Virus record (IMG/VR): IMGVR_UViG_3300020474_000018
Location: 1-54,612 of that record
Origin: a virus
Taxonomy: Duplodnaviria > Caudoviricetes
Direction: 5' to 3' (one strand)
DNA: 54,612 bases
Positions within the stretch are counted from its first letter, which is position 1. Every line of letters starts with the position of its first letter. The position numbers and the translations under genes are program-made. The notes under the pieces were generated by a model. The model did not search any database and had not been told where the DNA came from. It saw only the letters and a list, made by a program, of their open reading frames with translations. This document shows, in pieces, positions 7,921 through 53,277 of this stretch.

Positions 7921-7929
7921 ACTATTTAT
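7921..7929 (+). promoter_or_regulatory. Putative late promoter motif ACTATTTAT
   Basis: Between a terminator and the sheath gene, where a new promoter is needed and no sigma70 pair is evident. Confidence 0.55.
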
Positions 7930-35042: not shown

Positions 35043-35226
35043 AGAAACTTATAACATGATGCCAACAATAATAAAGCAGCATGCAGGTATGCCAGACAAC
35101 TATATTAACTTGACAACAGACCAAAAAAGGTTTATAATAGAGATGTTCGATATTGATAGGGAAGCAGTGAGAGCATCCCTCAAGGAAACTCTAGAAGAAA
35201 TGAAAGGTTTAGTTAATGAACTCTAG
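35029..35226 (+). CDS. Hypothetical protein
   Basis: 65 aa; AGGAG RBS; overlaps both neighbours. Confidence 0.5.
   Translation: MKNIEETYNMMPTIIKQHAGMPDNYINLTTDQKRFIIEMFDIDREAVRASLKETLEEMKGLVNEL
35110..35138 (+). promoter_or_regulatory. Consensus sigma70 promoter upstream of dnaE
   Basis: Perfect TTGACA-N17-TATAAT. Confidence 0.75.
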
Positions 35227-38200: not shown

Positions 38201-38650
38201 GTGGCGGAAGATAGACCAAGAAAAGAAAAGAATCTATTAGAGAATATTGAAGCATACGCTCCAACTGGAGATTTCTCAGAGGAAGAAAAGTTAGAATATC
38301 TAGTTAATTTAACGGGAGTGTTTCCAATAAATGCGGTGGTTACACCGAGAGTTAGGAACAAGTTAGAGGAACTTTATATTCCTCCAATTTCTGAATTTGA
38401 TCCTGAGCTTGGGGTAACATGGTTTATCCCCAGAGAATGTAAGCTGAAAAAGTCAAAGAACGGAAAGAACTTTTATGTTGTCAAAGTTATCGACGACAAC
38501 AATGAAACGACAGTAATTAGGTGTTGGGGTGTAGACCCCGATAAAGATATTGTACAAATCAACAGGCCTTATATGGCCAGATTGAATTACAATCAACAGT
38601 GGGGTTTTTCCACTTTTAGTATGAGAAAGATGTTTAAGCTATTAGCATAA
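35216..38650 (+). CDS. dnaE: DNA polymerase III alpha subunit (family C)
   Basis: PHP domain HAHS...TDHG, GRGSAAGSLV, YPDIDYD, HAGGVV, KFDILGL, FQEQ and YGFNKSHA. Confidence 0.97.
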   Translation: MNSRTESSIPFVGLHAHSVAGSPFDALGYPPEHMDFAYGNGMDALALTDHGNMNGLAWQVLHAKKMKKAGKEFKPIFGCEAYFIPSVAKWKEEYEEIKNAAKKKSDYEADNSGTTVEDEGASKKKIKSVLNRRRHLILLAMNQTGLQNIFKMISRSYSGDNFYRYPRVDYALLKKHNEGVIAASACLGGVYAGNYWENRDVGPDAILGAMRQTTQKMQDIFGDRWYGELQWNNVPEQHELNRYIIQMNQEFGIDLISTADSHYYNADVWKDRELYKRLGWLGKGRPDYLSDELPVSVEEVGYELYPKNGDQMFESYKKYSKECGAEYDDKLVLDSIKRTHQIAHERIETFLPDNTVRLPDFVVPEGSTAGQTLAALCVEGLRSLGLANEQKYVDRLKHEVNVIEDRGFSKYFLTMKAIADVAVTRQLVGAGRGSAAGSLVAYVLNITQVDPIKYGLQFERFLTKGGSGYPDIDYDVSDPMTLKEELIDEWGDDSVVPITNWNTLQLRSLIKDISKFYGIEFTEVNNVTSKMVYEATPLAKKKHGITAGVYVPTFEELMEFSESLQKFLQKYPHIKTHIEKLYGQTRSASRHAGGVVVGENLDKWMPLINSGGVRQTPWSEGQNVRHLEPMGFIKFDILGLASLRMLEGAIERILRRHHGMSDPTFADIKDYYDKNLHPEVIDLEDKDVWQNIFHKGKWAGIFQFTETGAQSFCKNARPDNIIDLAAITSIYRPGPLGAGVDRKYIGAKSEPEEVEYVNKHVREVTEETYGFLIFQEQIAMLAHKLGKGLSLDEGNKLRKLLTKKGTGAVQAEKDKIFDKFKRGCIEKGMKDYEARELWETFEYFSGYGFNKSHAVSYCVLSYQCAYLLNYYPAEWLAAFLDKEPETRKERAIATAKSLGYNVEPLNVNTSGVNWEISKDGKTLIQPLSSIKGLGIKAIEQIIQHRPFKTIEEFLFHPEITYSKLNKKSIQALTLSQAMNSLIDDRFTGLKHFWNAVAEDRPRKEKNLLENIEAYAPTGDFSEEEKLEYLVNLTGVFPINAVVTPRVRNKLEELYIPPISEFDPELGVTWFIPRECKLKKSKNGKNFYVVKVIDDNNETTVIRCWGVDPDKDIVQINRPYMARLNYNQQWGFSTFSMRKMFKLLA

Positions 38651-40010: not shown

Positions 40011-41196
40011 TGATGTTCTTTTGGTCCCGAGAATGTCAGAGATAGAATCTAGAAAAGATGTGGACCTCTCATCCGTATTAAAATACACAGACTATGATGA
40101 AAGTCTTGATCTATTAACTGGTTATGAGTTTTCACTTCCTATCATCTCTTCTCCAATGGATACTGTTACTGGAAGAGATATGATGAGAGCGATGCACCAT
40201 GCAGGAGGCCTTGGTATCGGCCATAGGTATTGCTCTATAGAAGAACAGGTAGAAATGGTACGACCAACTATCAGTCACCCTTACAAGAAAAAAGAAGAGA
40301 AACTGGATTGGGACAAGGTCAAAAGTACCTCCTCCTTACACCCGTTTATGAAAGAGGTTTACGTAGACCCTTACCATTCGCCAAAGGCAAAGGCCTTGAA
40401 TACTGGAGTTGATGACTATCTGCAAGATGTTAAGAGTTTTAGTCACACAGCTGCAGCTGCTATTGGTGTAACAGGAGACTTCCTTGAACGTGCCCAGGAA
40501 CTTGTAAAAGCAGAGTGTAAGATTCTTTGCATTGATGTAGCTCATGGCCATCACATCTCCGTGAAAAAAGCTCTTAAGAAACTTAAGAAGCAGTTTGGTG
40601 ATGATGTTGTACTCATTGCAGGTAATGTAGCTACTGCAAGAGCCTTCGAGCACTTGTCTGATTGGGGAGCAGATGCAATAAGGGTAGGTATCGGCGGAGG
40701 CTCTATTTGCTCTACAAGAATCCAGACTGGTCATGGTGTACCAACACTGCAATCAATTATAGACTGTGCAGAATCAGAGGGTGATGCAAAGATCATAGCT
40801 GATGGTGGAATTAGAAATGCCGGAGATATTGTTAAATGTCTCGCTGCAGGTGCAGACTTTGTAATGCTGGGTTCGCTACTGGCCGGAACTGATCAAACCC
40901 CTGGTCAAGTGTTTACTTCAGCAGAGGGTAACAAATATAAGGTCTACAGAGGTATGGCTTCTGCAGAGGCCCAGATTGACTGGAGAGGCAAGGCAAAGTC
41001 TCTTGAGGGTGTGTCTACTACTATTCCATGGAAGGGTTCGGTGAAAAAAATCTTAAAAGATTTAGAACAAAACATTCGCTCTGGACTTTCCTACAGTGGT
41101 GCGACTAGTATAGAGGACTTGTATAGCAGTGCAAAGTTTATCAAACAAACTCAAGCAGGCATGCGGGAAAGTTTTACACATATTTTAAACAGATGA
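39988..41196 (+). CDS. IMP dehydrogenase/GMP reductase family enzyme without CBS domains
   Basis: LSFDDVLLVP, SSPMDTV, IDVAHGH, GIGGGSICSTR, IADGGI, YRGMAS and EG motifs. Confidence 0.9.
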   Translation: MKTALSFDDVLLVPRMSEIESRKDVDLSSVLKYTDYDESLDLLTGYEFSLPIISSPMDTVTGRDMMRAMHHAGGLGIGHRYCSIEEQVEMVRPTISHPYKKKEEKLDWDKVKSTSSLHPFMKEVYVDPYHSPKAKALNTGVDDYLQDVKSFSHTAAAAIGVTGDFLERAQELVKAECKILCIDVAHGHHISVKKALKKLKKQFGDDVVLIAGNVATARAFEHLSDWGADAIRVGIGGGSICSTRIQTGHGVPTLQSIIDCAESEGDAKIIADGGIRNAGDIVKCLAAGADFVMLGSLLAGTDQTPGQVFTSAEGNKYKVYRGMASAEAQIDWRGKAKSLEGVSTTIPWKGSVKKILKDLEQNIRSGLSYSGATSIEDLYSSAKFIKQTQAGMRESFTHILNR

Positions 41197-41528
41197 AAGA
41201 ACACCACCCAGATAAAGTTGTCAAATTTGTTTTTAGCGTGTACGAAAAACTTTCAGCAGATCTAAAGATAAGATTAAGATACGACAACTTAAGCCAGACT
41301 AAATTTTTTGCTGGAATAGTCAAGCTTTATTTAGAAAATGATGAGAATATGATGAAGGTTATGTACAAAGTTAAACAAAATGCCGCGTCTATGGGTAAGA
41401 GCAAATTGAACAGAACAATAAAAGATATAAACAGAGGAGAAAATATTATGGAACAATTAGGAATCACAGATTCTGACAAACAAAGTATATTTGATTTGAT
41501 TGAGATGGATTCACAAGAATATGAATAA
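41193..41528 (+). CDS. Hypothetical protein (possible ribbon-helix-helix-like N-terminus)
   Basis: 111 aa, coupled ORF. Confidence 0.5.
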   Translation: MKEHHPDKVVKFVFSVYEKLSADLKIRLRYDNLSQTKFFAGIVKLYLENDENMMKVMYKVKQNAASMGKSKLNRTIKDINRGENIMEQLGITDSDKQSIFDLIEMDSQEYE

Positions 41529-41733
41529 AGAGACTTGTAAATGTTGCGGAAGAGAAAAAGAAAAATGTTGGATAGATTACCCAGAAGATGACAACTGTAT
41601 ATATGAGACCATCAGAAAACATGGTCCTATAACACTAGATGAGGTCTCAAAGAGACTGGGTATATCTCTGGTAAGAGTGGCTCAGATTGAAAAACAAGCA
41701 TTAAAGAAACTTTCTAAGAGAATAAAAATATGA
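41521..41733 (+). CDS. Stand-alone sigma70 region 4-like HTH protein
   Basis: TLDEVSKRLGISLVRVAQIEKQALKKL matches region 4.2; Cys-rich N-terminus. Confidence 0.75.
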   Translation: MNKETCKCCGREKEKCWIDYPEDDNCIYETIRKHGPITLDEVSKRLGISLVRVAQIEKQALKKLSKRIKI

Positions 41734-41751
41734 CTTTTATCCAAAAAACTT

Positions 41752-41760
41752 ACTATTTAT
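41752..41760 (+). promoter_or_regulatory. Putative late promoter motif ACTATTTAT
   Basis: Intergenic; identical to 7921 and 50793. Confidence 0.55.
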
Positions 41761-41806
41761 AGTTGTACAAATACACTATTCACTAATTTGAAAAGGAGAA
41801 TATAAA

Positions 41807-42415
41807 ATGAGTGATAACAAATTACTAGCAGAGAACACAGTTCGACGCTTCATGAAACTAGCAAACGTAGACTCTTTAACTGATACTTTCATTCAGGAGA
41901 CATACGCATCAAAGATGAAAGATGAGAAAGATAAAGAAACACAAAAAGAGGAAGCTGAAAATACTGAAGAGGTTGTGGAAGAATCAGAAGAAGAGATTGA
42001 TATCAACGAAGAAGAGGAACTTGAACTCAATGAAGAAGAGATTGACGAGATGATGGGCTCTTCTTATAAAGACGAAGATGCGGAAATGGAAGATCCCGAA
42101 GGTGAAGGTCTCGAAGGCGAAGAGCCAGGAAAGGCAGACTTAAGCCTATCTGAAGAAGAAGCACAGGTAATCATCGATCTAGGCAAACGCCTCGAAGAAG
42201 CGATGGGTGACGAAATGGTCGCCGGCGACGACATGGGCGAACTAGATCCGGGCGAGGACATGGGCGGAGAAGAAATGGCTGCAGCTGATGAACCCGAAGG
42301 AGAAGAAGAGGATGACGAGCTTGGAATGATGGCAGAAGAAAAAGACGCTATTGTACAAGAGGTTCTGAAAAGAGTAGCAAAGAGGCTCGTATCAGAAAGA
42401 GTCAACCGATCTTAA
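41807..42415 (+). CDS. Highly acidic protein, probable prohead core/scaffold-type
   Basis: Glu/Asp-rich; KLLAENTVRRFMKLA N-terminus and IVQEVLKRVAKRL C-terminus. Confidence 0.5.
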   Translation: MSDNKLLAENTVRRFMKLANVDSLTDTFIQETYASKMKDEKDKETQKEEAENTEEVVEESEEEIDINEEEELELNEEEIDEMMGSSYKDEDAEMEDPEGEGLEGEEPGKADLSLSEEEAQVIIDLGKRLEEAMGDEMVAGDDMGELDPGEDMGGEEMAAADEPEGEEEDDELGMMAEEKDAIVQEVLKRVAKRLVSERVNRS

Positions 42416-42444
42416 GATAAAAATTTGTTATCACGTTCTATATG

Positions 42445-42484
42445 AAAACCCCAAGTTTATCAAAAGCTATGGGGTTTTTGTTTT
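42445..42484 (+). terminator. Probable terminator hairpin
   Basis: AAAACCCCA...TGGGGTTTT followed by T-rich sequence. Confidence 0.6.
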
Positions 42485-42511
42485 GACAATCTCTAAAAAA
42501 AGTGTTATTAT
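42483..42511 (+). promoter_or_regulatory. sigma70-like promoter, probably giving a leaderless transcript
   Basis: TTGACA-N17-TATTAT with TG extension; ATG 42518 starts 7 nt after the -10 box. Confidence 0.65.
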
Positions 42512-42517
42512 CAAATA

Positions 42518-42925
42518 ATGAGTGATTTAGTATTTTACAGTATAATCATGTTCTGGTCTGGAGTATTCTTAACCAAGGCAGTATTTTATTTTGATATGAA
42601 GCGCAAGAAGCGCCGCTTTTATCTTTTAATGTCTGCAGCAATATTGCAAGTTCTAGACTCAATCTACACTTGTCATATGGCAGTCACTGAATACGCGTCT
42701 ACAGAATTAAAAAACATAGATTCCATAGAAGAAAACGATATTCAAGAATATTTAAGAAAAGAGGGTGACAAAATTTCTATTTTCATGGATCTATATACTC
42801 TGCTCTTTATAAAGGCCACTCCGGAGAGCGGAAGAGAATATATAAACTATAGAACTTGGAAAGAAGCTCACGCTCTAATATTAAAGATGCGCGAGGCTAT
42901 CAATCATGAAAAAAATAAAGGCTAG
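42518..42925 (+). CDS. Hypothetical membrane-anchored protein
   Basis: N-terminal hydrophobic helix followed by KRKKRR. Confidence 0.55.
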   Translation: MSDLVFYSIIMFWSGVFLTKAVFYFDMKRKKRRFYLLMSAAILQVLDSIYTCHMAVTEYASTELKNIDSIEENDIQEYLRKEGDKISIFMDLYTLLFIKATPESGREYINYRTWKEAHALILKMREAINHEKNKG

Positions 42926-43160
42926 TTACTGGAAAGTGAAAGAAGACACTTATAAATTGCAAATACAAACAAAAGAAGAGCAGAAAAACATACAAAAGAT
43001 GCTACCAGGCTGGCAGTGTGTTTCGTTCGGGTACGTACCATCAACAAGCGAAGAAATTTTGGTCTTCGAGAAAAGTTTTAAATCAGAAATAGACTGGACA
43101 AAGTTTCTAAACTCTGATATGATTATAGAGAAAGTAGAAATGAGAGACATAAATGAGTAA
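42906..43160 (+). CDS. Hypothetical protein
   Basis: 84 aa, coupled ORF. Confidence 0.5.
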   Translation: MKKIKASYWKVKEDTYKLQIQTKEEQKNIQKMLPGWQCVSFGYVPSTSEEILVFEKSFKSEIDWTKFLNSDMIIEKVEMRDINE

Positions 43161-43842
43161 AAGAATTTCAAATCAACCAAAAAAGAAAAATAAAAAGAAA
43201 AAAGAAATTGATCTCAAAGAAGATGATAAGCAGATTGTGATTGTTAATAACATCCAGGCACCCAGCAACCCAGAGCCAGAACTGCGAACCATCAACTTAT
43301 ATGGGGATATAACTGAGCAGAAAGGAGCTGATGTTGTAGCAGCGCTGTTGTATTTGGAGAACACGTCTCACACTCCAATGTTAGAAGACCCCACAGATCC
43401 AGAATCAATGCCTGTTGTTGTAGCTCGTTCTATAGCAATGATGGTCTCAACCCATGGCGGCGTCGCGTCGGATATGTTTTCAATTTTGGACATTATGGAT
43501 ATGGTCAAAGAGAGAACTTGTGATATAGAGACATTTGGTATTGGCAAGGTGATGTCGGCGGGGGTACCCATCCTCGCAGCCGGCACTAAGGGAAAAAGAA
43601 AGGTCGGACGCAACTGCCGCATAATGCTACACAATGTCATGGCTGGAACAGGAGGTACAATTTTTTCAATGGAGAACGAATTAGAAGAGATCAAATGGGT
43701 ACAGGAGAGGTACATAGAGACGCTGGCCAGCTACACTAAGTTGACACCTTCTAAAATCAAGAAACTCCTAAAGACTCAGAAGGATGTTTACATCTCTGCA
43801 GAGGAAGCAATTAAAATGGGTATTGCTGACGAGATTATCTAA
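43153..43842 (+). CDS. clpP: ClpP-family serine protease
   Basis: INLYGDI, STHGG, VMSAG (Ser), IMLHN (His), KDVYISAEEAIKMGIADEI (Asp). Confidence 0.9.
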   Translation: MSKRISNQPKKKNKKKKEIDLKEDDKQIVIVNNIQAPSNPEPELRTINLYGDITEQKGADVVAALLYLENTSHTPMLEDPTDPESMPVVVARSIAMMVSTHGGVASDMFSILDIMDMVKERTCDIETFGIGKVMSAGVPILAAGTKGKRKVGRNCRIMLHNVMAGTGGTIFSMENELEEIKWVQERYIETLASYTKLTPSKIKKLLKTQKDVYISAEEAIKMGIADEII

Positions 43843-43862
43843 TTATACAGAGGAGCCTTAAC

Positions 43863-45605
43863 ATGTCGTGGCACGAAGAATTTTTATCAGAGAACAACAA
43901 GAAACCTACGCTATCAACAATGGGAGACCTTTTCAGTCTTATTGAGGAGGTTTTTGAGGCGGAAAAGGGTACCCTATTCGGACAAGCTAAGAGTGAAATT
44001 GAAATCTTAAAAGAACAGTTCCTTAATGAAAGAAAAGATTTAACTCTAACACTTCAAGCAATACCAGAAATAAGCGTAAGCGAACTAGGTTGGACAGACG
44101 TTCAAACTAAGGGTGATAAGAAGGTTTCAGGCCCAGAGAGAGAACAACTTGGCCAGTTTCTCAAGCAAATAGAAGGGCAAGACCTAGCCGCAAAAGTCGC
44201 AAGCCTGGCTCTCTTCTATGAGAATGGCCCTTCGGAAGACTACGATAGGCTACCAGTTGGTCAAAAAATCTCAAAGGTACTATCTTATCTAGTTTTTTTC
44301 AAGGCACTTACAAAGGTTGTATCGAACTTCAATGCTGCATCTGCTGGGTTCAACTTTGAAGCGTTTCTTGCTGTGCTGCTAGATGGCAAACAAGTACCAG
44401 CAAATACAGGGACTATTGCTGACTTTACTACGGGAGACGAGATACCAATCAGTTTGAAACTTTACGCCGAGAAATCAGTGGTTGTTGGTGGTTCTTTCAA
44501 CGACCTCGTGGGCGACTTAGTAAAGCCACAATTCAGCGGCTTTGATGGAATGAGATACGTAGTGTGTATGAAGTCATTCAAATCATCTGAGACGGGAGAG
44601 AAGCAGGGCTCTGGACTCGACATTGAAGGCGACATCAAATTTTTTCAGTTTGATTTCACACTTGATAACATTGCGAATATAATTGCTAGGTCTATGGACA
44701 AGTCAAAGATTTGTATTCAACTTCCGGCCGCCTTCGTTGCGTCTGAGGGTAGAGAAGACGTAGCAAGTACACTTCCAGGTGCTTCAATGCCGTCCGCGCA
44801 GGACCTAGAAGACATGTTTATTGGCTTTTTTAAGCAAGAAATTGTGTCCGCACTGGAAGGCACCGGAATTGAAATCAACGACGGCCAAGTCACTGCATTT
44901 TTAGATGCGCTGAAGTGGTCAAAGAGGGATTCTCTTTTCGCCCCTGTTGGCAAAGGGGATGTGCAAAAGTTTGTTGTCCGAGGTCAATCAGGAATAAAAG
45001 GAAAGACTGGAAACTCAGAGGTGAAAAACATCGTCGATGTCCTTGCACAAGATGGCGTCTTTGACTTAGACCCTGAAAACCCTCGCGGCGCACAAGCAGT
45101 TGTCAAGGTGCTCAAAAAGCAATTTGCCCGGGCAACAGATGCCGCCAATGACAAAGTACGCGCACAGTTCGCAAGTGCAAGAGTAAAGGATGAAAGAAAC
45201 AATATGCTGAAGCAGCCAGACTTTTATGCCTCGCTGGAAGATTCAGTGACCTTTTACAATAAACTCAAAGGTAATCCACAATTGCAAAAGCTCGCTCTTG
45301 AAAATTCAAGAGGGATGCTAGAAACGCACCAGTTTGATGTGAATAGAAAACAAGTGCTTGAGATATCGCAGGACCTGGGTGAAATTAAAATTGGCGCAAG
45401 AGTCGTTCAAGAGATGCTGAACAAGATGTCGCAAGACCTCAATGAAGCTATCTTCGATATTTTTACAAACGTGAAAGTAATACAAGACAGCACCTACGCA
45501 TTCATGGCCGGAGGCTTGAAAGATGACGAAAAGGCTAAGGCCAGTATCAAGGCATCCAACGCGATCGCATACAAGACGGAAGAGCTTCGTCCAGAAAATC
45601 AGTGA
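43863..45605 (+). CDS. Hypothetical protein, possible virion-internal protein with a PD-(D/E)xK-like motif
   Basis: 580 aa; GFNFEAFLA...IADF...ISLKLY; TCTAATTAT motif at 43838 and AGGAG RBS. Confidence 0.5.
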   Translation: MSWHEEFLSENNKKPTLSTMGDLFSLIEEVFEAEKGTLFGQAKSEIEILKEQFLNERKDLTLTLQAIPEISVSELGWTDVQTKGDKKVSGPEREQLGQFLKQIEGQDLAAKVASLALFYENGPSEDYDRLPVGQKISKVLSYLVFFKALTKVVSNFNAASAGFNFEAFLAVLLDGKQVPANTGTIADFTTGDEIPISLKLYAEKSVVVGGSFNDLVGDLVKPQFSGFDGMRYVVCMKSFKSSETGEKQGSGLDIEGDIKFFQFDFTLDNIANIIARSMDKSKICIQLPAAFVASEGREDVASTLPGASMPSAQDLEDMFIGFFKQEIVSALEGTGIEINDGQVTAFLDALKWSKRDSLFAPVGKGDVQKFVVRGQSGIKGKTGNSEVKNIVDVLAQDGVFDLDPENPRGAQAVVKVLKKQFARATDAANDKVRAQFASARVKDERNNMLKQPDFYASLEDSVTFYNKLKGNPQLQKLALENSRGMLETHQFDVNRKQVLEISQDLGEIKIGARVVQEMLNKMSQDLNEAIFDIFTNVKVIQDSTYAFMAGGLKDDEKAKASIKASNAIAYKTEELRPENQ

Positions 45606-45614
45606 GGTACAAAA

Positions 45615-46163
45615 ATGAATAACATGAAACTAATAATGGAAAACTGGAGACAGTTTAAAGAAACAAAGTCATCTAGACTTGACCCCCCTGCTGATGGAAT
45701 GACTCCGATAGACCCGTCGGCTTACGATGTTCACGCAGGGGGAGAAATCGGGAAGCCTCAGCCAAAAGGTGCACCAATTAAGCAAAGGAGACAAATAAGT
45801 GTCTATCCTAAACCAGGTTCACTCTTTAACACTTCGACCGGAGAAGTTAACCCTGAGGCAGCTGAAGAGTTGATGGACATCATAGATAAAGACAAGGACC
45901 TTATGATGTCTTCGGACGACCCTTACGTTGATGATTGGCTCGAAAGGACACACGCAGCGATTATGGATGCGATTGAAGGCATGCGTGAAAAGGGTCAAGC
46001 AGAACTTGATGAATTGGATGCAACTCTGGATGGTAAATTTCAAGATGCAATCGAAGACATTAGAGCTATTATTGCCGCCCGTGATTCTGATGATACCTTA
46101 GACATGCGTGGCAAAATCCGAGAAGATACTGTACCCGGCTTCGATCCAGAAACATCACAATAA
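45615..46163 (+). CDS. Acidic hypothetical protein with MKLIMENWRQF leader
   Basis: 182 aa; GAGG RBS; leader shared with the gene at 49844-50761. Confidence 0.6.
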   Translation: MNNMKLIMENWRQFKETKSSRLDPPADGMTPIDPSAYDVHAGGEIGKPQPKGAPIKQRRQISVYPKPGSLFNTSTGEVNPEAAEELMDIIDKDKDLMMSSDDPYVDDWLERTHAAIMDAIEGMREKGQAELDELDATLDGKFQDAIEDIRAIIAARDSDDTLDMRGKIREDTVPGFDPETSQ

Positions 46164-46168
46164 ACTAC

Positions 46169-46196
46169 TTGACATTTTCGTAAAATACGTTATAAT
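46169..46196 (+). promoter_or_regulatory. sigma70-like promoter for groEL
   Basis: TTGACA-N16-TATAAT. Confidence 0.65.
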
Positions 46197-46222
46197 ATAT
46201 ATATTAATGAAAGCGAGGCATA

Positions 46223-47791
46223 ATGACCACACAACTCAGCCATGGACCTGAACTCCGCAACAAGGTTCTCGACGGCGTAAACACTCTTGCGGATTATGTA
46301 GCAACAACTCTTGGACCAAAAGGGCAGAACGTTCTGATTCACCAGAAAGATCGTCGACCCTTTATCACCAAAGATGGTGTTACTGTGGCGTCCAACGTTA
46401 GTTTTGAAGATCCGCATATGAATGCAGGTGCTGAGGTTGTAAAGCAAGTTTCTGCTATGACAAACAGTGAAGCTGGCGATGGCACCACAACCTCGACTGT
46501 CCTAGCAAGAGAAATTCTTATTCAAGCCAATAAACATATATCATCCGGCACCTCTCCCATTGAAATAAAGAGGGGCTTGGATCATTGTTTAGAGGAGGCA
46601 ATTCAGGTAATTGAAGAAATGTCTGAACCTATCTCATCTGCCGATGATGTCAGACATATCGCCACCATATCAGCAAACAATGATGACACAATCGGCAGCC
46701 TTGTAGCCACAGCCGTTGATGAGGTTGGTAAGAATGGTACTGTAACTATCGAAGAGGCTCGTTCCCTTGAGACAACCCTTGATCTTGTTGAGGGTTTTAG
46801 GTTTGATAGTGGCTTTGCGGCGACAGCATTCATAACAGACGAGAGAAGAGGGGTGTGTAGATATGAAAGTCCAATGTTCTTCATTACAGATTCAAAAATA
46901 GAGCAAGTAAATCAGATCCTCCCAGCACTTGAAATAGCAGCTAGAGAAAACAGACCGTTTGTAATTATAGCAGAAGAAGTGGAAGGTCAGGCTTTGGCTG
47001 CACTAATTATGAATACTATGCGCGGATCGATGAAGGTCGCCGCTGTAAAGGCTCCTCGATATGGGGAGGAAAGAAGGGCTATAATGAGCGACCTTGCGGT
47101 CTCAACAGGTGCAAAGTTTTTTCAGCAATCAATGGGTCACAATCTCTCTGATGTGTCATTGACTGATTTTGGAAAGGCTGCTAGTGTGGAGATCACCAAA
47201 AATACGACTACGATCGTTGATGGTGAAGGAGACTATGAACAAGTTGATGAGACTATTGAGAGAATCAAAGTCGAAATACAACAAACTGATGACATCCATG
47301 AAGCGGGACGACTCCAAGATCGTGTTACTCGTCTCTCTTCTGGCGTTGCTATTATCCGTGTTGGTGCTTCATCTGAAGTAGAGCTGATTGAGAAAAAGCA
47401 TCGCATCGAAGATGCTTTGGAAGCAGTTAGGTCAGCCCAGCAAGAAGGAATCGTACCAGGAGGTGGGATGACCCTGCTTCGTGTGTCCAATATGATCAAC
47501 CCAAATTTTGCCTCTGAGGAGCAAGCGACAGCATTTTCCATATTTAAAAGAGCGCTGGAGTCTCCATTCCGTACAATGGCTTCGAATGCAGGCTTAATAC
47601 CAGATGTTGTCATGTTAAAAGTTGAGGAATCAGAAGGCTTTGAGGGCATCAATTTTTCTAATGGCAATAAAGAAAATTTAAAAAAATCTGGCATTCTAGA
47701 CCCTGCGAAAGTTACTCGGTGTGCCCTTAAGAATGCTATATCGGTAGCGGGTACTCTTTTATTGACAAACCATAGTATTGTCCATAAATAG
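46223..47791 (+). CDS. groEL: Chaperonin GroEL
   Basis: TLGPKG, ITKDGVTVA, AGDGTTT, VKAPRYG, GIVPGGG and ILDPAKV; lacks the GGM tail. Confidence 0.97.
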   Translation: MTTQLSHGPELRNKVLDGVNTLADYVATTLGPKGQNVLIHQKDRRPFITKDGVTVASNVSFEDPHMNAGAEVVKQVSAMTNSEAGDGTTTSTVLAREILIQANKHISSGTSPIEIKRGLDHCLEEAIQVIEEMSEPISSADDVRHIATISANNDDTIGSLVATAVDEVGKNGTVTIEEARSLETTLDLVEGFRFDSGFAATAFITDERRGVCRYESPMFFITDSKIEQVNQILPALEIAARENRPFVIIAEEVEGQALAALIMNTMRGSMKVAAVKAPRYGEERRAIMSDLAVSTGAKFFQQSMGHNLSDVSLTDFGKAASVEITKNTTTIVDGEGDYEQVDETIERIKVEIQQTDDIHEAGRLQDRVTRLSSGVAIIRVGASSEVELIEKKHRIEDALEAVRSAQQEGIVPGGGMTLLRVSNMINPNFASEEQATAFSIFKRALESPFRTMASNAGLIPDVVMLKVEESEGFEGINFSNGNKENLKKSGILDPAKVTRCALKNAISVAGTLLLTNHSIVHK

Positions 47792-47822
47792 GTAACTAAT
47801 TATCTTTGTGGAGGGACCAACA

Positions 47823-48092
47823 ATGTCAAACCAACAGGATTACAACTTAGAGTTACAATCAAAACTAGATAAAGTTTGCAACGGCATAGATGTTATGAGC
47901 GACAAGCAAGAACAGATGTCGGAGGATATAGCGAAAATAAAAGAAGCGGTATACAATCCAGACCAAGGATTGTATGCAAGACTTAGAGAGCTAGAATCTT
48001 GGAAGAAAACCTCATCCAGGATGATATGGACCTTGTTTACTACCATGATTGGTTTAATAGGTGCCTTTATATTGAAAAATTTAGGAGTATAA
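47823..48092 (+). CDS. Coiled-coil protein with a C-terminal transmembrane helix (holin/XhlA-like layout)
   Basis: C-terminal MIWTLFTTMIGLIGAFIL; ACTAATTAT motif at 47795 upstream. Confidence 0.45.
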   Translation: MSNQQDYNLELQSKLDKVCNGIDVMSDKQEQMSEDIAKIKEAVYNPDQGLYARLRELESWKKTSSRMIWTLFTTMIGLIGAFILKNLGV

Positions 48093-48380
48093 ATGTTAGT
48101 AGAGATTAAAACCCTTCGTATCGAAAACGAGGGGTACAAGAGAAACATTTCTCTAAATAGAATTTACGTAAATGCAAGTAACATAATCTCAATAACAGAT
48201 TATGACGGCGCAACAAGCTTTTTGCTAAGAGAACAATCTAATTTAAGTAGTGAAAGCTTTTCTTTGATAAAGTTGAGTGAAGGCGGAGCAGTCCAGGAAA
48301 TAATCGCCTTTGGCTCAGCAGAGCAAATTTTTAATAAATTAAACAAAGTATCCAACGGAAAGAGATTATTAAATGACTGA
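48093..48380 (+). CDS. Hypothetical protein
   Basis: 95 aa; AGGAG RBS. Confidence 0.55.
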   Translation: MLVEIKTLRIENEGYKRNISLNRIYVNASNIISITDYDGATSFLLREQSNLSSESFSLIKLSEGGAVQEIIAFGSAEQIFNKLNKVSNGKRLLND

Positions 48381-48615
48381 TAGATATATAATTGTTGGCA
48401 GAGTATCTTGTCCTTTTTGTGTCAAGGCAGTGGATTACTGTAAAGCAAAATCAGCGGAATTTATTTTTCTAGATTATATTGAAAGACCAGATATTCTAGA
48501 TGAGTATAAGCAGTTCCATAATCAATCGACTGTACCAATAATTTTAGCTAACGACATGGACACAGGACATACAGAAAAAATTGGAGGATACTCAGATCTA
48601 CTGGAGCATTTATAG
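48373..48615 (+). CDS. Glutaredoxin
   Basis: CPFC, TVPII and IGGYSDL. Confidence 0.9.
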   Translation: MTDRYIIVGRVSCPFCVKAVDYCKAKSAEFIFLDYIERPDILDEYKQFHNQSTVPIILANDMDTGHTEKIGGYSDLLEHL

Positions 48616-48953
48616 TGTCAACCAGTACCACAACACCTATTAAGTTAAGCGTGTTAAGGGTCTTGTATAAGGGGTTAGAGCCGGTCAGGGATCGTCTCGA
48701 CAGCATATTAGAAGATTTTTACAAGAAAAATATAATACTTTCTCAGGCAGAACATACCGCGGTCTTGGAGTTCCGTTCTGCAGCATCCACTGTTGAACTG
48801 CTTCTTTTAGACTATTTTGAACAGGCTCAGGACAACAATGTGGATACCCTCTATCTTCCAAATAAAGAGTTTCACTTATTGTTAGATCTCTCTAAGACAG
48901 CAGAGTTAGCCTACCGCGCCCCAATCGCCAACTCTGGACTATGGACCCACTAA
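48615..48953 (+). CDS. Hypothetical protein
   Basis: 112 aa, coupled ORF with GTG start. Confidence 0.5.
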   Translation: MSTSTTTPIKLSVLRVLYKGLEPVRDRLDSILEDFYKKNIILSQAEHTAVLEFRSAASTVELLLLDYFEQAQDNNVDTLYLPNKEFHLLLDLSKTAELAYRAPIANSGLWTH

Positions 48954-49291
48954 TGAATCTTTATATCGGAATAATATTAGTTTTTATTGGCCAAATAATT
49001 GGCTGGTTTCAATTAAATGCTCAATATACATCTGAGTGGTGGAAGGATAAGCCCATCTGGGCGGCATTTCTGCTTGGTGTGCCCTGTTCTATCGCCTTCT
49101 GGTACTCTTGGAAGTTTATAGTAGATGAGACAGGCTCAGCGTGGACAGCAAGGTTTATCGGCTCTTCAGCGGGTCTTATTATTTTTCCTATATTAACATG
49201 GTTCCTTCTAGGTGAATCCATGTTTACGGCTAAAACAATGATTTGCTTTGGTCTTGCAATTTTAATAATTTTAATTCAACTTTTCTATTGA
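48941..49291 (+). CDS. Small four-TM membrane protein (DMT/SMR-like layout)
   Basis: Four hydrophobic segments and a LTWFLLGE motif. Confidence 0.6.
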   Translation: MDPLMNLYIGIILVFIGQIIGWFQLNAQYTSEWWKDKPIWAAFLLGVPCSIAFWYSWKFIVDETGSAWTARFIGSSAGLIIFPILTWFLLGESMFTAKTMICFGLAILIILIQLFY

Positions 49292-49315
49292 CATCAAAAA
49301 TATCGTGGTTATATT
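49288..49315 (+). promoter_or_regulatory. sigma70-like promoter for hsp20
   Basis: TTGACA-N16-TATATT. Confidence 0.5.
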
Positions 49316-49322
49316 GTAAGTG

Positions 49323-49389
49323 TAGCCAAGTCGCCGTAAGGGACTGAGCTATAAAATGTAACTTGCTTAACAAGGAGGAATATAAAATG
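49323..49389 (+). promoter_or_regulatory. ROSE-like RNA thermometer in the hsp20 5' UTR
   Basis: 5' hairpin with a GTAA tetraloop, then CTTGCTT-AAC-AAGGAG pairing the Shine-Dalgarno with a bulged G. Confidence 0.65.
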
Positions 49390-49821
49390 AATGCAATTAC
49401 TACATACCGACCTGGTCTACTAGGCCACCAAGTTATCAACGAGGTGTTTGATAATTTTTTCAACGATAGGGATCTGTTCTCTAATGTTCTCAAGCAATCC
49501 ACAAAAGGCTATCCCGTTGCCGACATTTATCGAGACGACGATGGCTCTACAGTGTTGGAGTTTGCCCTAGCGGGGTTCAAGAAGAAAGAACTGTCCGTGG
49601 ACATTCAGCCTGGGAAGAGAACGATCACTATCACTGGCCAAGTTGACGAGAAGAACCCAAAGAGACAAAGGATTGCTCGCAGGAACTTTACAAGAACATT
49701 TGTAAACTATGATGATAATCTTGACTTGGAAGAAGCAGAAGCTCAGTTTGAAAATGGTTTATTGACTGTTAGAGTTCCGCAAAGGCCAGAGGCCCAACCT
49801 TTGACCATTGAAATCAAGTGA
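49387..49821 (+). CDS. Small heat-shock protein (Hsp20/IbpA family)
   Basis: YPVADI, LEFALAGF, IARRNFTRTF and AQFENGLLTV.VP; AGGAGG RBS. Confidence 0.93.
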   Translation: MNAITTYRPGLLGHQVINEVFDNFFNDRDLFSNVLKQSTKGYPVADIYRDDDGSTVLEFALAGFKKKELSVDIQPGKRTITITGQVDEKNPKRQRIARRNFTRTFVNYDDNLDLEEAEAQFENGLLTVRVPQRPEAQPLTIEIK

Positions 49822-49826
49822 TTTGG

Positions 49827-49852
49827 GGGGAGCGAAAGCTCCCCTATTTTTT
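49827..49852 (+). terminator. Terminator between convergent genes
   Basis: GGGGAGC-GAAA-GCTCCCC followed by TATTTTTT. Confidence 0.85.
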
Positions 49853-50761
49853 GTTGGTTGAATACTGCACAATCTTCGCCTTTGCGTTCTGAATCTGACC
49901 GTCAAGATTGTAAATGTCTGCAGACCGCCACTTGGTCTTTAGTTTTTTCAAGAATTGAATTTCTGCCTTGTAAGCATAGATTTCGCTCGCACTGCGCGCC
50001 GCTGCCACCAATGGATTGACCTCGCTTAAGATTTGATTGTACAAAATTTTCATATCTTTGGGTCCAACTCCAGTTATTTTTTGCGTGTCCGTATCGAAGT
50101 CAAAAAGTCCTGCTTCGATAGCTTTTTGGAATATTTCTTTTACTTTTTGGTTTATAAATTTATCAAACTCCCTTGGTTCAACCGCATGAGCTACTTCGTG
50201 CACGATTGTACTGGCGACCTCCATGGCTTGGCCGGCAATATGATAATCGATTTCGTCGGTAATGTCTTTGTGAATTTTTTTGAAGTCCTTCGTGAGCTGC
50301 TTTGGAGATGCTTTTTTGCTGAACTTATTTTGATTAACAATATCGTCCTTAAACCCGCGCAGCACATCACCGCTTTGCCATCTAGTTCGAAACCCAGAGA
50401 GATTAACAAAAGCGGTGTCATCTGTCTTTTTCTGCGCACCAGTGAGTTTGCTGTCGTATTCACTCGCTACAATCTGTCCAATTTTAAGCGAATCTGCATC
50501 TTTGAAATAATAGTCAGCCCACCGTAGAATATACCGTGGGGTTTTGTCCCAGTAGTGACCAAGGTTATCATCACTTGGGCTATCATGAAATATTATTTTA
50601 TTAAGAACAGGTGAACTTTTAATAACTTCAGGCCCCGCCAATTCGATAAGTTCATAAGCTTTGTCGATAATTTGTTGTTCTGGAAACGGCATGCCCGCCA
50701 CATTCTTCTCCTCACTTAAGAGGAATTTCCTCCAACTCTCCATTATTAGTTTGTATTGCAT
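49844..50761 (-). CDS. Putative zincin-like metallopeptidase with KLIMESWRKFL leader
   Basis: 305 aa; STIVHEVAHAVE HExxH motif and a downstream SEIYAY Glu; the only convincing minus-strand gene. Confidence 0.6.
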   Translation of the reverse strand: MQYKLIMESWRKFLLSEEKNVAGMPFPEQQIIDKAYELIELAGPEVIKSSPVLNKIIFHDSPSDDNLGHYWDKTPRYILRWADYYFKDADSLKIGQIVASEYDSKLTGAQKKTDDTAFVNLSGFRTRWQSGDVLRGFKDDIVNQNKFSKKASPKQLTKDFKKIHKDITDEIDYHIAGQAMEVASTIVHEVAHAVEPREFDKFINQKVKEIFQKAIEAGLFDFDTDTQKITGVGPKDMKILYNQILSEVNPLVAAARSASEIYAYKAEIQFLKKLKTKWRSADIYNLDGQIQNAKAKIVQYSTNKK

Positions 50762-50765
50762 AATT

Positions 50766-50774
50766 ATAACTAGT
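50766..50774 (-). promoter_or_regulatory. Putative late promoter motif ACTAGTTAT on the minus strand
   Basis: Ends 4 nt before the ATG of the minus-strand gene; no SD sequence. Confidence 0.45.
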
Positions 50775-50789
50775 TTTCTTCGTTTCCCA

Positions 50790-50818
50790 TTGACTATTTA
50801 TAGTAAAAAGGGTATAAT
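50790..50818 (+). promoter_or_regulatory. Overlapping sigma70-like promoter and late motif
   Basis: TTGACT-N17-TATAAT with ACTATTTAT at 50793-50801 overlapping the -35 box. Confidence 0.6.
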
Positions 50819-50824
50819 ACTACT

Positions 50825-52681
50825 ATGAATTTCAACAACACATGGCGAAACTACGTCAACCAACGTCCCAAATCCAAGGGCCTTCTTCTCGGAGAGCAGA
50901 TTATCCGAGAGAGAAGGTTAATAGCAGAAGGTAAGAAAGACGATGCAAAGAAAGCAAACCCTATCACTGACTCTTTTGAAGTGGTGGACGTCCTGGCTAT
51001 CCAACTCCGAGCAGAATTTGGCGACAAAGGCATGGCGAAGTATATTGGTTACGCCACCAGAGAAATGGAAGAGTTCTATAGACAGAACACAAGAAAAGAT
51101 GGGAATAGATATATCTTAAATCCGGATGTCTTGGCAACGCGCCACTTTGAAGAGGTCATGGGGTCAGTGTTAGGTTTCCATAGAAATTTACAAAGACTCG
51201 AACTAAAAGACATAAACAAATACACACTACAGTCTTTGACTAGAGTAATAGAAGAGCTTGGCCAATCCGAAACCGCAAGAAAGAAAGCTTTCTATGATGA
51301 AAAAGAAGCAAAGAGAAACTCTGAGTTAGTTTTTAACTCGAATGGTATACATGCAGTTAGACCACTTACAACTCAGGCTTCGTGCTTCTTCGGTCACAAC
51401 CCAAGGCTTACTACTTGGTGTATATCAACAAAATCAAAGAGAAACTACTTCAAGCAATATACAGAAGAGGAAGGCAAGGCGTTTGTGATGGTTAGGTTTT
51501 TTGGTGTTGAGGAAGGAACCGACAATCATATGTGTTCCATGCAATTTTCAGGACCAGGAGAGCCAGAATTTGAGATGTGGTGGGACGGCCCAAGGAACAG
51601 GGCACAGAACCCGGATGACTTCTTCTCTGTTTTCCTAGAGCACGTCGAGGGAATGTTCCCAGACGATGAGGAAAACTGGTCTGACCTTGCACAAGAACTG
51701 CATGACAGCCTCGTCGCTGCAGCCACCGGTGTTGTGTGGGATGATCCACCTGCCGACCCAGTAGATGCCATCACGCCAAAGTGTGAAGCAATAGAGGCAG
51801 CTTTCAAGGAAAAGTCAGAATTTACCACAATTTGGTGGACGACAGACCAAGACACGTTTGAAGAGCATGGATATGTTGCGGTTGACTTTGGTGCAAACAC
51901 GGAGTTCAAACTCACACCAGAGGACCACGGAATTCCAGCAGAAGTTATAGGAAAAACTGATGAGTATAATTTCTGGCGTGGTCTAGAAAGTCGCTGGGAA
52001 AAAGCTTGCAAAGATGCTGGTCTTTATGCATATGAGAAATACGACTTGTATACGACTGCTGCAGCTGCTTCATTGCCAGAAGGCACCGTTGTATTAGGTC
52101 TGCAACACGAGGGTGATGAGACCGTAGGCGGCTACACGCTTGAAGGTTTCGAAGAATTTGCTGATGCTGCTTTGAATCTAGATAAGACAGACGCCATAGA
52201 GTCTATGAAGATGGCCATAGCCATCTTGCAGCAGGAGTTTGGAGAGCAAGAAACAGGCTTACCAGCAGAAGACGAGCAAGGTTTTGACGATGAGATAGAT
52301 GAGAATACGTTTTACAAAGATTTAGAAAAACAACTCCTTGGGGAAGAGAAAGGGAGAACCAGACAAAGAGGTATCTATAAGTTTCACTGTATGATTTCAT
52401 ATAGCCTCACAGCGGAACCGGAAAAGGCCAGAGGCCTAGATGACATCTTAGCTGACATGCGTGCATTACAAAACGTAACTATTGTTACTGTTGCGATAAG
52501 AAATCAAAAAATTGGAGAAGGTAGATATATAGCAGGTCTTGCGATTAAATTTATACCATCAATTCCAGGAGAAATCGGCCAGCCGGAAATGACAAAAGCA
52601 AGAATAGTCAGAGACATAAAGAGATTAGCAAATATAAAATCACTTTTTAAACTATCAGCAGGATTAACAAGATTAGAATGA
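50825..52681 (+). CDS. Multidomain hypothetical protein, possibly virion-internal
   Basis: 618 aa; ASCFFG...TWCIS...NYF.QY motif, acidic middle and a distinct basic C-terminal domain. Confidence 0.6.
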   Translation: MNFNNTWRNYVNQRPKSKGLLLGEQIIRERRLIAEGKKDDAKKANPITDSFEVVDVLAIQLRAEFGDKGMAKYIGYATREMEEFYRQNTRKDGNRYILNPDVLATRHFEEVMGSVLGFHRNLQRLELKDINKYTLQSLTRVIEELGQSETARKKAFYDEKEAKRNSELVFNSNGIHAVRPLTTQASCFFGHNPRLTTWCISTKSKRNYFKQYTEEEGKAFVMVRFFGVEEGTDNHMCSMQFSGPGEPEFEMWWDGPRNRAQNPDDFFSVFLEHVEGMFPDDEENWSDLAQELHDSLVAAATGVVWDDPPADPVDAITPKCEAIEAAFKEKSEFTTIWWTTDQDTFEEHGYVAVDFGANTEFKLTPEDHGIPAEVIGKTDEYNFWRGLESRWEKACKDAGLYAYEKYDLYTTAAAASLPEGTVVLGLQHEGDETVGGYTLEGFEEFADAALNLDKTDAIESMKMAIAILQQEFGEQETGLPAEDEQGFDDEIDENTFYKDLEKQLLGEEKGRTRQRGIYKFHCMISYSLTAEPEKARGLDDILADMRALQNVTIVTVAIRNQKIGEGRYIAGLAIKFIPSIPGEIGQPEMTKARIVRDIKRLANIKSLFKLSAGLTRLE

Positions 52682-53277
52682 CAACGAAAACACCTCAGCA
52701 ATTTCGAAGACAAAACGTCAAAAACCTTTTTGACAAAATTCTAAAGAGAGGAAAAACAGAACTTATACCACTTTCTATAGATATTTCAGAATCTATAGAA
52801 GATGGGTTAACAACGGTGAATTTATCTTTAACGGAGAAATCTTATCATTCGGTAAAGGTTAAATTTTTAAAGGATATAAAGGCAAAAGGCTACGTAGATG
52901 GCCTTTTCAAAGGACTGCAGGAAGAATACAAAGAATCTTACCCAACCCTAAATAGAATAAAATTAATAGACTTATCAGTTATACCTACCATTAAGAAGAC
53001 CAGCAGCGTAGGTTCCGATGCTAAAACTAATGTATCGCTTTCAGTTAATGTTGATCAACATGGAGAGGCGGAGTTCTACCATAGATCCCGATCAATGGTT
53101 CGCTCAAGCTTCTTTGCTGTCTTGAAGGCATTTGAATTTTATATAAATTGTGAAAGAACATTTGTGAGTTTGAAGAATATCCTAGAAGATGCACAGTCTC
53201 GCAACCGCGGTGATATAATACAGACTTGCTTGCTAGATCTAAGTAAGTTGACAGAAGTCAATACTTATGAAGGGTGA
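52678..53277 (+). CDS. Hypothetical protein
   Basis: 199 aa, coupled ORF (ATGA overlap). Confidence 0.55.
   Translation: MTTKTPQQFRRQNVKNLFDKILKRGKTELIPLSIDISESIEDGLTTVNLSLTEKSYHSVKVKFLKDIKAKGYVDGLFKGLQEEYKESYPTLNRIKLIDLSVIPTIKKTSSVGSDAKTNVSLSVNVDQHGEAEFYHRSRSMVRSSFFAVLKAFEFYINCERTFVSLKNILEDAQSRNRGDIIQTCLLDLSKLTEVNTYEG

Follow-up and report, generated by a model that had tools for sequence, protein, structure and literature searches.

Phage T4 packages otherwise unrelated proteins, including IPI, IPII, IPIII and Alt, by means of a capsid-targeting sequence (CTS), a short N-terminal propeptide that lies directly after the first Met and ends in an aliphatic residue, any residue and Glu. Both IPII and IPIII begin with MKTYQEFIAE. 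According to the available part of PMC9026906, the first 10 residues of the CTS are sufficient for packaging; targeting is governed chiefly by residues 4 and 7, processing by residues 8 and 10. The N-terminus of the T4 prohead protease gp21 is MNEPQLLIETWGQ, and its propeptide has been suggested to target gp21 into the core as the CTS does (PMC9026906, available part). The S77-type proteases of T4, φKZ and SPN3US all cut after Glu; ejection proteins of φKZ and SPN3US bear long propeptides, thought to target the prohead, which are removed at [A/S/G]-x-E, and SPN3US gp53 and gp54 have an identical 15-residue N-terminus but are otherwise diverged (PMC5694885, as far as its text is accessible). 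The element described here, termed the leader, is found at the N-termini of two genes, 45615(+) and 50761(−), of an IMG/VR virus fragment of 54,612 nucleotides (54.6 kb, about 30% complete) that originates from marine metagenomes; the whole of this stretch is referred to as the window. Judged from its sequence, the leader is probably a T4-like capsid-targeting propeptide, removable by a protease and carried by interchangeable cargo, for which we infer packaging, cleavage and injection.

The consensus of the leader is M-x(0-4)-K-L-I-M-E-x-W-R-x-F-[LIV]-x-E, and it is the sole part that the two window genes have in common:

45615..46163, + strand: leader-bearing gene (L182), 182 residues, acidic, without a family; between the 580-residue gene and GroEL
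45627..45662, + strand: leader core K5–E16, KLIMENWRQFKE, where I-M-E and F-K-E replace the usual [LIV]-x-E end
49844..50761, − strand: leader-bearing gene (L305), 305 residues, with a HEVAH motif; in a variable slot between the Hsp20 and 618-residue genes
50711..50752, − strand: leader core K4–E17, KLIMESWRKFLLSE, containing I-M-E and L-S-E

The open reading frame (ORF) 45615..46163(+) begins with MNNMKLIMENWRQFKE and the ORF 50761..49844(−) with MQYKLIMESWRKFLLSEE. An earlier note on this DNA had reported that the two share a leader and a 14-nucleotide string with nothing similar downstream, and this is borne out: the string is exact at 45627(+) and 50739(−), and BLASTP aligns the two proteins over the leaders only (residues 4–14 versus 3–13). 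When one mismatch is allowed, the string occurs three times in the window (two exact), against 0.05 expected. The pattern [LIVM][LIVM]E.[WFY][RK].[FYW] has only two matches in the six-frame translation of the window, both of them these N-termini. With a profile made from 137 distinct leaders, 50761(−) scores 30.7 bits and 45615 scores 23.8 bits. Homology of the two window proteins over their full length was looked for and none was found; paralogy of the leader proteins is ruled out by the leader-only BLASTP alignment and by the different folds.

The 182-residue protein has 11 marine relatives with 50–86% identity. Seven carry the full leader or a near variant, one begins at an internal Met and one is without its N-terminus; the other two are shorter sequences, only one of which has the leader. 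The database copy of the window's own protein likewise begins at an internal Met. For the 305-residue protein, a word-based search of 5.8 billion sequences returned only the protein itself, and a full HMMER search of 1.84 billion representatives found only four distant relatives. Three of these carry the leader, which is near-invariant while the cargo diverges to 28–42% identity, and all four carry [TI][LI]VHEV[AS]HAED. The earlier description of this cargo as a metallopeptidase rests on the HEVAH motif, kept in the four relatives, and no peptidase family or fold is confirmed: Pfam and PHROG assign no family, a model made by AlphaFold2 (AF2) without an alignment has a predicted local distance difference test score (pLDDT) of 44, unusable for a fold search, and the leads from the ESM Atlas (M91, M78, SprT-like) are all below 0.9.

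A degenerate DNA pattern, back-translated from K-L-I-M-E-x-W-R-x-F, was searched for in IMG/VR and was found in at least 118 contigs; counts of leader genes, clusters and carriers refer throughout to the matches listed (123, of which 113 are usable, having W-R and at least 60 residues downstream). About one chance match is estimated from the information content of the pattern. A Met lies 1–5 residues upstream in 109 of the 113 usable matches. The earlier proposal was to build a leader profile and to scan related contigs for diverse downstream domains; once their first 16 residues are cut off, the 113 proteins separate into 46 unrelated BLAST clusters (E < 1e-3), of 30, 15, 6, 5, 4 and 4 members, nine pairs and 31 singletons. 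Columns left free by the pattern are also conserved, with L/V/I at position 11 in 70 of 98 and E at position 13 in 68 of 98. Among the 137 distinct leaders, position 7 is W in 135, position 10 F/Y in 133, position 11 L/V/I in 100 and position 13 E in 95; [LIV]xE occurs at positions 10–18 in 108 of them, versus 183 of 2339 control windows (7.8%). The invariant I-M-E (L-T-E in variants) is a second Glu site of the same type within the leader, and positions 13–18 are rich in E/D, so that an acidic run follows it. A profile search of the 1.06 Mb fetched gives 183 matches of at least 12 bits, 171 of them within six residues of a Met, and adds variant N-termini such as MKKLLTEWRKFLKE, MKLLFENWRKYLKE and MRRLFENWRRFLTEE.

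Leader genes also occur in tandem, six in a row in the complete genome G001 and three in the contig L047; the numbers of strong leader genes in the complete genomes G001, G003 and G012 are eight, three and one. At the conserved positions every synonymous codon of K, L, I, E, R and F is in use, and since the codons vary freely, the level of selection is that of the peptide. The same pattern, searched in 185,579 prokaryote species at one genome per species, gave four matches, all due to chance (none N-terminal, three reading W-S); a role as a prokaryotic sorting signal is rejected, as there is no genuine copy in this set. The pattern is absent from T4, Syn9, S-PM2, P-SSM2 and HTVC008M. A tblastn search of phages with a 24-residue leader (E ≤ 10) gave no matches, the sensitivity with so short a query probably being low. 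No account of this leader was found in the searchable literature, which excludes supplements and subscription journals. Public gene calls (P0003, P0005, P0010, P0019 and P0020) often start at the internal Met of K-L-I-M-E and give proteins that begin MENWR... or MESWR...; the motif is hidden in protein databases because such calls truncate the leader.

A second recurrent N-terminal motif of these viruses, M-K-[IL]-T-K-x-x-L-K-x-[IL]-I-K-E-E-L, is seen in L018, L063, L038, G001 (L120:16814-17200) and others, and a related head-operon family, h128, starts M-N-K-x-E-L-K-K-L-L-K-P-L-I-K-E-C-I-K-E-V. Both could be further leader classes with I-K-E sites.

The proteins behind the leader are 70–490 residues long and for the most part familyless; for 48 cargo representatives only three Pfam families and eight PHROGs were matched, with one member each. 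The cargo of L098 has an S-adenosylmethionine (SAM) lyase domain behind the leader (PF23780, residues 56–158, 44 bits, curated cut-off 28), and that of L094 a cytidylyltransferase-like domain from residue 22. The largest cluster, cluster 1, with 30 members, is predicted to have a GNAT fold: all 21 matches of its profile in the PDB are acetyltransferases or GNAT-related (best E 7.8e-4), and the top Foldseek matches of its AF2 model are all GNAT proteins (E about 7e-4, template modelling score 0.3–0.5). The mean pLDDT of this model is 80.6, and residues 1–18, the leader, are below 50 and thus disordered. Some carriers are short and very acidic; the single carrier of G012 has 75 residues.

By gene content, the listed carriers all belong to a single lineage of uncultured marine myophages, whose head is of the T4 type. 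An S77 (gp21-type) protease is encoded in 23 of 39 carrier records and in all five of those that are at least 90% complete, a Gp23-family capsid protein in four of four complete genomes and a gp22-like acidic scaffold in 17 of 20; PHROGs confirm the portal and the protease. A conserved L-[LV]-R-E is present in the capsid propeptide, close to the spot of L-T-E65, the cleavage position of T4 gp23 (compare PMC9026906, available part). The head operon of G001 runs terminase, portal, h274, h179, h114, S77 protease, h419, h128, S21-like gene, h139, scaffold, capsid, with the S77 protease gene at L120:14940-15536. Of the 113 listed leader genes, 56 lie no more than 3 kb from head genes: 34 leader genes begin about 20 nucleotides or less downstream of h179, on its strand, between portal and protease, and six directly follow the protease gene, again on the same strand. 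The h179 slot is used by eight unrelated clusters, and 11 of the 46 clusters have head-operon members. The slot is empty in G001, and the single strong leader gene of G012 lies about 3.4 kb past the capsid gene. In T4, the prohead-core genes 67 and 68 are located between portal and protease.

A second slot, on the minus strand at the Hsp20/618-residue junction, holds the 305-residue HExxH protein in the window and a 183-residue protein in L119; in L092 a 361-residue leader protein lies upstream of the same 618-residue gene. The three proteins have only their first 14–20 residues in common, so the cargo, as read from these sequences, is swapped at the slot while the leader stays. In L098 and L119 many leader genes follow GroEL, and carriers are often found among accessory genes.

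Two other genes of the head operon of G001 can be mentioned here. A ribosomal protein S21-like gene (phrog_21469, E 6e-8; L120:17197-17478) lies between protease and scaffold. A 114-residue gene between the leader slot and the protease (L120:14554-14898, with orthologues) looks hydrophobic and Cys-rich (MNLLLFILCCYGLTQILVYS...), which is unusual for a head operon.

When the leader is set beside the T4 CTS, Y4-x-x-F7-I8-x-E10 corresponds to W-x-x-F-[LIV]-x-E, with the same residue classes and the same spacing, at the level of pattern only. As in IPI, IPII, IPIII and Alt, a short segment right after the Met, with an aliphatic-x-Glu end, precedes proteins that are otherwise unrelated, and the lineage, like T4, encodes an S77 protease of the gp21 type, a gp22-like scaffold and a Gp23 capsid protein. 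Like the genes of T4 internal proteins, leader genes occupy variable slots and are exchanged between relatives, and their cargo plausibly acts against the host. The leader differs from the T4 CTS in being 4–8 residues longer, with an extra invariant K-L-I-M-E block, and many leader genes, unlike those of T4 internal proteins, lie within the head operon itself. The range of cargo, at least 46 clusters that include enzymes, is far wider than the about 10 small internal proteins of T-even phages (PMC12373910, accessible part). The leader is thus CTS-like in pattern and, by sequence, no member of the T-even CTS family. With φKZ and SPN3US the lineage shares a homologous protease that cuts after Glu; the propeptides of those giant phages mostly exceed 100 residues and belong to paralogous families, whereas the leader is a short tag on dozens of unrelated folds. 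Encapsulin cargo-loading peptides and MuF-fused phage toxins likewise rely on a short or modular tag to bring varied cargo into an HK97-fold shell; these tags are often C-terminal or consist of a whole MuF domain, are not known to be removed by a protease and have no known sequence relation to the leader.

In the proposed mechanism the leader would be a flexible N-terminal extension outside the cargo fold, as the model of one cargo family suggests. Late in infection it would dock the protein onto the scaffolding core of the prohead by way of the aromatic pair W...F; the S77 protease would then cut behind the Glu of [LIV]-x-E, and perhaps behind the internal I-M-E as well, freeing the cargo in the head, and the cargo would exit with the DNA at the next infection. 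Any gene that gained a leader would become cargo, which would account for the presence of the leader on unrelated enzymes (GNAT-fold, SAM lyase, nucleotidyltransferase, HExxH) and for their exchange at fixed slots; the window would hold two such genes, 45615(+) and 50761(−).

The S77 proteases of the lineage start M-S-K-Q-L-L-R-E-F-x-x-L...D-L-L-T-E (x-K-x-L-L-R-E-[FY]-x-x-L), one of them starting RLITEWVNFE. T4 gp21, the lineage proteases and the leader all have [LI]-x-E followed by an aromatic residue; the L-I-E9 cleavage site of the gp21 propeptide is predicted only, even in T4. When a profile of eight variant leaders was run on 1314 ORFs, 13 of the 14 best non-leader N-termini were proteases, their scores of 5–9 bits placing the likeness to the S77 propeptide at the level of pattern. 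A more speculative proposal, to which we give distinctly less credence than to capsid targeting as such, is that the leader might be a captured copy of the prohead protease's own core-docking propeptide and that genes acquiring it at hot spots might be packaged, trimmed and co-injected. Such hot spots might, with equal reserve, include the head-operon slot and the Hsp20/618-residue junction of the window.

A number of observations weigh against capsid targeting or against the link with the protease. In searches with three leader profiles, IPII and IPIII are outside the best 8 of 335 T4 N-termini, and the gp21 N-terminus is second of 335 in one (3.3 bits) and outside the top 8 in the other two. 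The canonical leader profile detects no protease N-termini. A regular expression covering proteases and leaders selects 48 of the 1314 N-termini (by eye 31 proteases, 15 or 16 variant leaders and one or two others), but it was written after both classes had been seen. The end of the leader in the 45615 family is F-K-E instead of [LIV]-x-E. The window, incomplete as it is, holds no S77 protease, scaffold or capsid gene, and its five nearest fragments, each 6–26% complete, are all without an S77 protease. ClpP-like and GroEL genes are as lineage-wide as S77, and because all three are found in five of five complete genomes, co-occurrence gives no preference to the head protease. Half of the leader genes, both window ones included, are outside the head operon. 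No cultured phage is close, the nearest tail sheath of one having only 41% identity over part of the protein, and the polymerase of the lineage is DnaE-like. A last measure points both ways: [LIV]xE is rarer in cargo bodies (observed/expected 0.97 for 127 cargo proteins versus 1.20 for 790 other proteins of the same contigs, Mann–Whitney p = 8.6e-6), with [LIV]xD, [LIV]xK, [LIV]xQ, [LIV]xR, [LIV]E and Ex[LIV] undepleted, but [LIV]xxxE is equally depleted (ratio 0.80) and the sequences are related, not independent, so that the depletion lends the capsid-targeting propeptide weak backing.

Other explanations have to be set against this propeptide. The leader might be a recognition tag for the ClpP-like protease and its 580-residue neighbour, serving timed degradation, or for the phage GroEL, serving folding, and be unrelated to the head. 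We consider this unlikely. It would fit the frequency of the two genes (ClpP-like in 20 of 39 carrier records and GroEL in 17 of 39, in addition to the complete ones noted above), the position of 45615 between the 580-residue gene and GroEL, in a module kept in L055, L070 and L094, and the leader genes abundant after GroEL. Yet L070 and L094 have no leader gene between the 580-residue gene and GroEL, none of the listed leader genes of the head operon is beside ClpP by design, and the leader resembles the N-terminus of the S77 protease and that of no ClpP neighbour; moreover, the [LIV]xE end and the CTS spacing would be meaningless. Since the head operon of relatives has an S77 gene of its own, the ClpP-like gene beside the leader gene is probably accessory rather than the head protease. 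It is improbable, too, that the leader is a generic amphipathic N-terminal helix directed to one host target (membrane, ribosome or RNA polymerase) with no packaging involved. Its hydrophobic L, I, W, F and L would lie on one helix face, flanked by K/R and E, it is a free extension in the cluster 1 model, and the carriers among accessory genes would suit such a role; but the acidic run behind it is poor for anionic membranes, the lack of genuine copies in prokaryotes shows that it is not a widespread cellular sorting signal, and such a helix would account neither for the head-operon slots nor for the [LIV]xE end nor for the resemblance to the protease N-terminus.

Closer to capsid targeting is the view that the leader sends proteins into the prohead core for assembly only, as core or scaffold parts that are degraded or kept in the head and are not delivered. 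The commonest site of leader genes, the portal-to-protease slot, is where T4 has its core genes 67 and 68, and the short, very acidic carriers, among them the sole one of G012, are scaffold-like. Enzyme folds such as GNAT, SAM lyase, nucleotidyltransferase and HExxH have no obvious assembly role, though, close relatives hold different cargo at the same slot, and the empty h179 slot of G001 indicates that cargo there is dispensable, all of which makes a purely structural role doubtful. Least probable by far is that the shared element acts through its nucleotides, as a site of recombination or homing or as an element of translation initiation, with the peptide as a by-product. The 14 identical bases of the window copies, the over-use of CTT (Leu) and ATA (Ile) in the leader relative to gene bodies and the promoter motif often found 4–8 nucleotides from the ATG speak for it; against it, all six Leu, all three Ile and six Arg codons occur at conserved positions, K, E, R and F follow the usage of gene bodies, and variants such as KKLLTEWRKF retain residue classes and not bases.

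This promoter-like motif, ACTANTTAT, occurs eight times in the window versus 2.5 expected, and none of 100 shuffles reaches eight; it precedes 41807, 47808, 50825, 50761(−) and the sheath gene at 7974. The copies considered here are the following:

50766..50774, − strand: motif ACTAGTTAT, which ends 4 nucleotides ahead of the ATG at 50761
50793..50801, + strand: motif ACTATTTAT, before the 618-residue gene and divergent from the motif at 50766..50774
41752..41760, + strand: motif ACTATTTAT, before 41807
7921..7929, + strand: the same motif, before the tail sheath gene, which starts at 7974

In the 80 nucleotides upstream of leader genes, the top enriched 8-mer is ACTATTTA (17 of 99 genes versus 0.7 expected). 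The earlier note had placed each leader gene directly behind such a motif or in a transcript started from one; the motif is real and lineage-wide, but strict coupling fails, given these 17 of 99. In G001 it stands, among other places, before the scaffold gene and h139, before the gene after the capsid gene, before one that comes after the tail-sheath gene and before a 3543-residue gene. It is a promoter-like element of structural genes, presumably active late, because it precedes sheath and scaffold genes. In the form ACTA[TG]TTA it often ends 4–8 nucleotides before the start codon of a leader gene (window 50761-50774(−), L015, L013, L022 and L037), a distance which suggests nearly leaderless mRNAs. 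The copy at 41752 may drive the plus-strand run 41807..46163, co-transcribed up to the leader gene 45615 at its end, and the many leader genes of the head operon are read as co-transcribed with head genes.

The same note had extended the leader, in looser versions, to the genes at 50825, 41807 and 43863. With the 137-leader profile these prove to be noise (50825 scores 0.8 bits, and 41807 and 43863 are absent from the positive matches), which leaves real leaders in two of the five proposed members. Apart from this membership, the idea of a portable N-terminal tag like the T4 CTS has gained ground from the 46 unrelated cargo clusters, the T4-type head lineage with its S77 protease, the head-operon genes, the [LIV]xE end and the residue classes of the CTS. 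The 43863 protein has orthologues in L094 and L070 whose N-termini are unrelated. The third gene is a doubtful member:

50825..52681, + strand: gene of 618 residues with the N-terminus MNFNNTWRNYV

Its orthologues keep MNFNN[TA]WR[KN]Y, and the variant-leader profile gives the family 6.2 bits (L119), 4.4 bits (window) and 2.4 bits, the top N-terminus by that profile that is neither a recognisable leader nor a protease. This N-terminus is possibly, and at most, a degenerate relative of the leader. Pfam finds no family for the 50825 protein, and the nuclease-like cargo once suspected here is therefore not upheld. Gene 41807 (41807-42415) encodes a very acidic protein of 202 residues upstream of the ClpP-like gene, with family members also in L055 and L094; the family has a conserved N-terminus of its own, K-x-L-L-[AS]-E-x-x-[IV]-R-[RK]-F-M-x-L-A, which does not score as a leader.

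Other genes of the window include a T4-superfamily tail sheath, a UvsX-like recombinase, a DnaB-like helicase and a ribonucleotide reductase, together with the following:

35216-38650: DnaE-like polymerase, 28–31% identical to DnaE-like genes of Bacillus and Streptomyces phages
43153-43842: ClpP-like protein
46223-47791: GroEL
49363-49821: Hsp20

An accessory module of the ClpP-like gene, a familyless protein of 345–580 residues and GroEL occupies 43153-47791 of the window and is the one kept in L055, L070 and L094. Compared with leader carriers, the window's polymerase is 60–67% identical, its GroEL 50–64% and its sheath 54%; UvsX, helicase, GMP reductase, the 618-residue gene, a 199-residue gene and others are also common to both. 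By its genes, the lineage is a mosaic, with a DnaE-like polymerase and T4-type head genes. Searches of phages by Megablast with window positions 41000-53000 and with one cluster 1 gene, and by tblastn with the 580-residue protein, gave no matches.

Phage proteins that are packaged and injected can decide whether host defences win, because they are active before any phage gene is expressed. Outside T-even phages, P1 and giant phages, virion proteomics of cultured phages is, to our knowledge, almost the only source on such proteins. If the leader is a capsid-targeting signal, a 14-residue motif would identify the injected cargo of a whole lineage from sequence, with one to eight cargo genes in each complete genome and no fewer than 46 families of cargo, SAM lyase and GNAT-fold proteins included, and it would also mark the slots at which cargo is exchanged. 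The CTS principle of T4 would then extend to phages that share its head but not its replication genes, and a second, unrelated tag would be available for loading foreign proteins into phage heads; there is a hint that such tags derive from a protease propeptide. Should the leader indeed be a captured copy of that propeptide, the lineage as a whole would possess a plug-and-play system of effector delivery, and its leader would for the first time allow the injected proteins of abundant uncultured marine phages to be listed from sequence alone.

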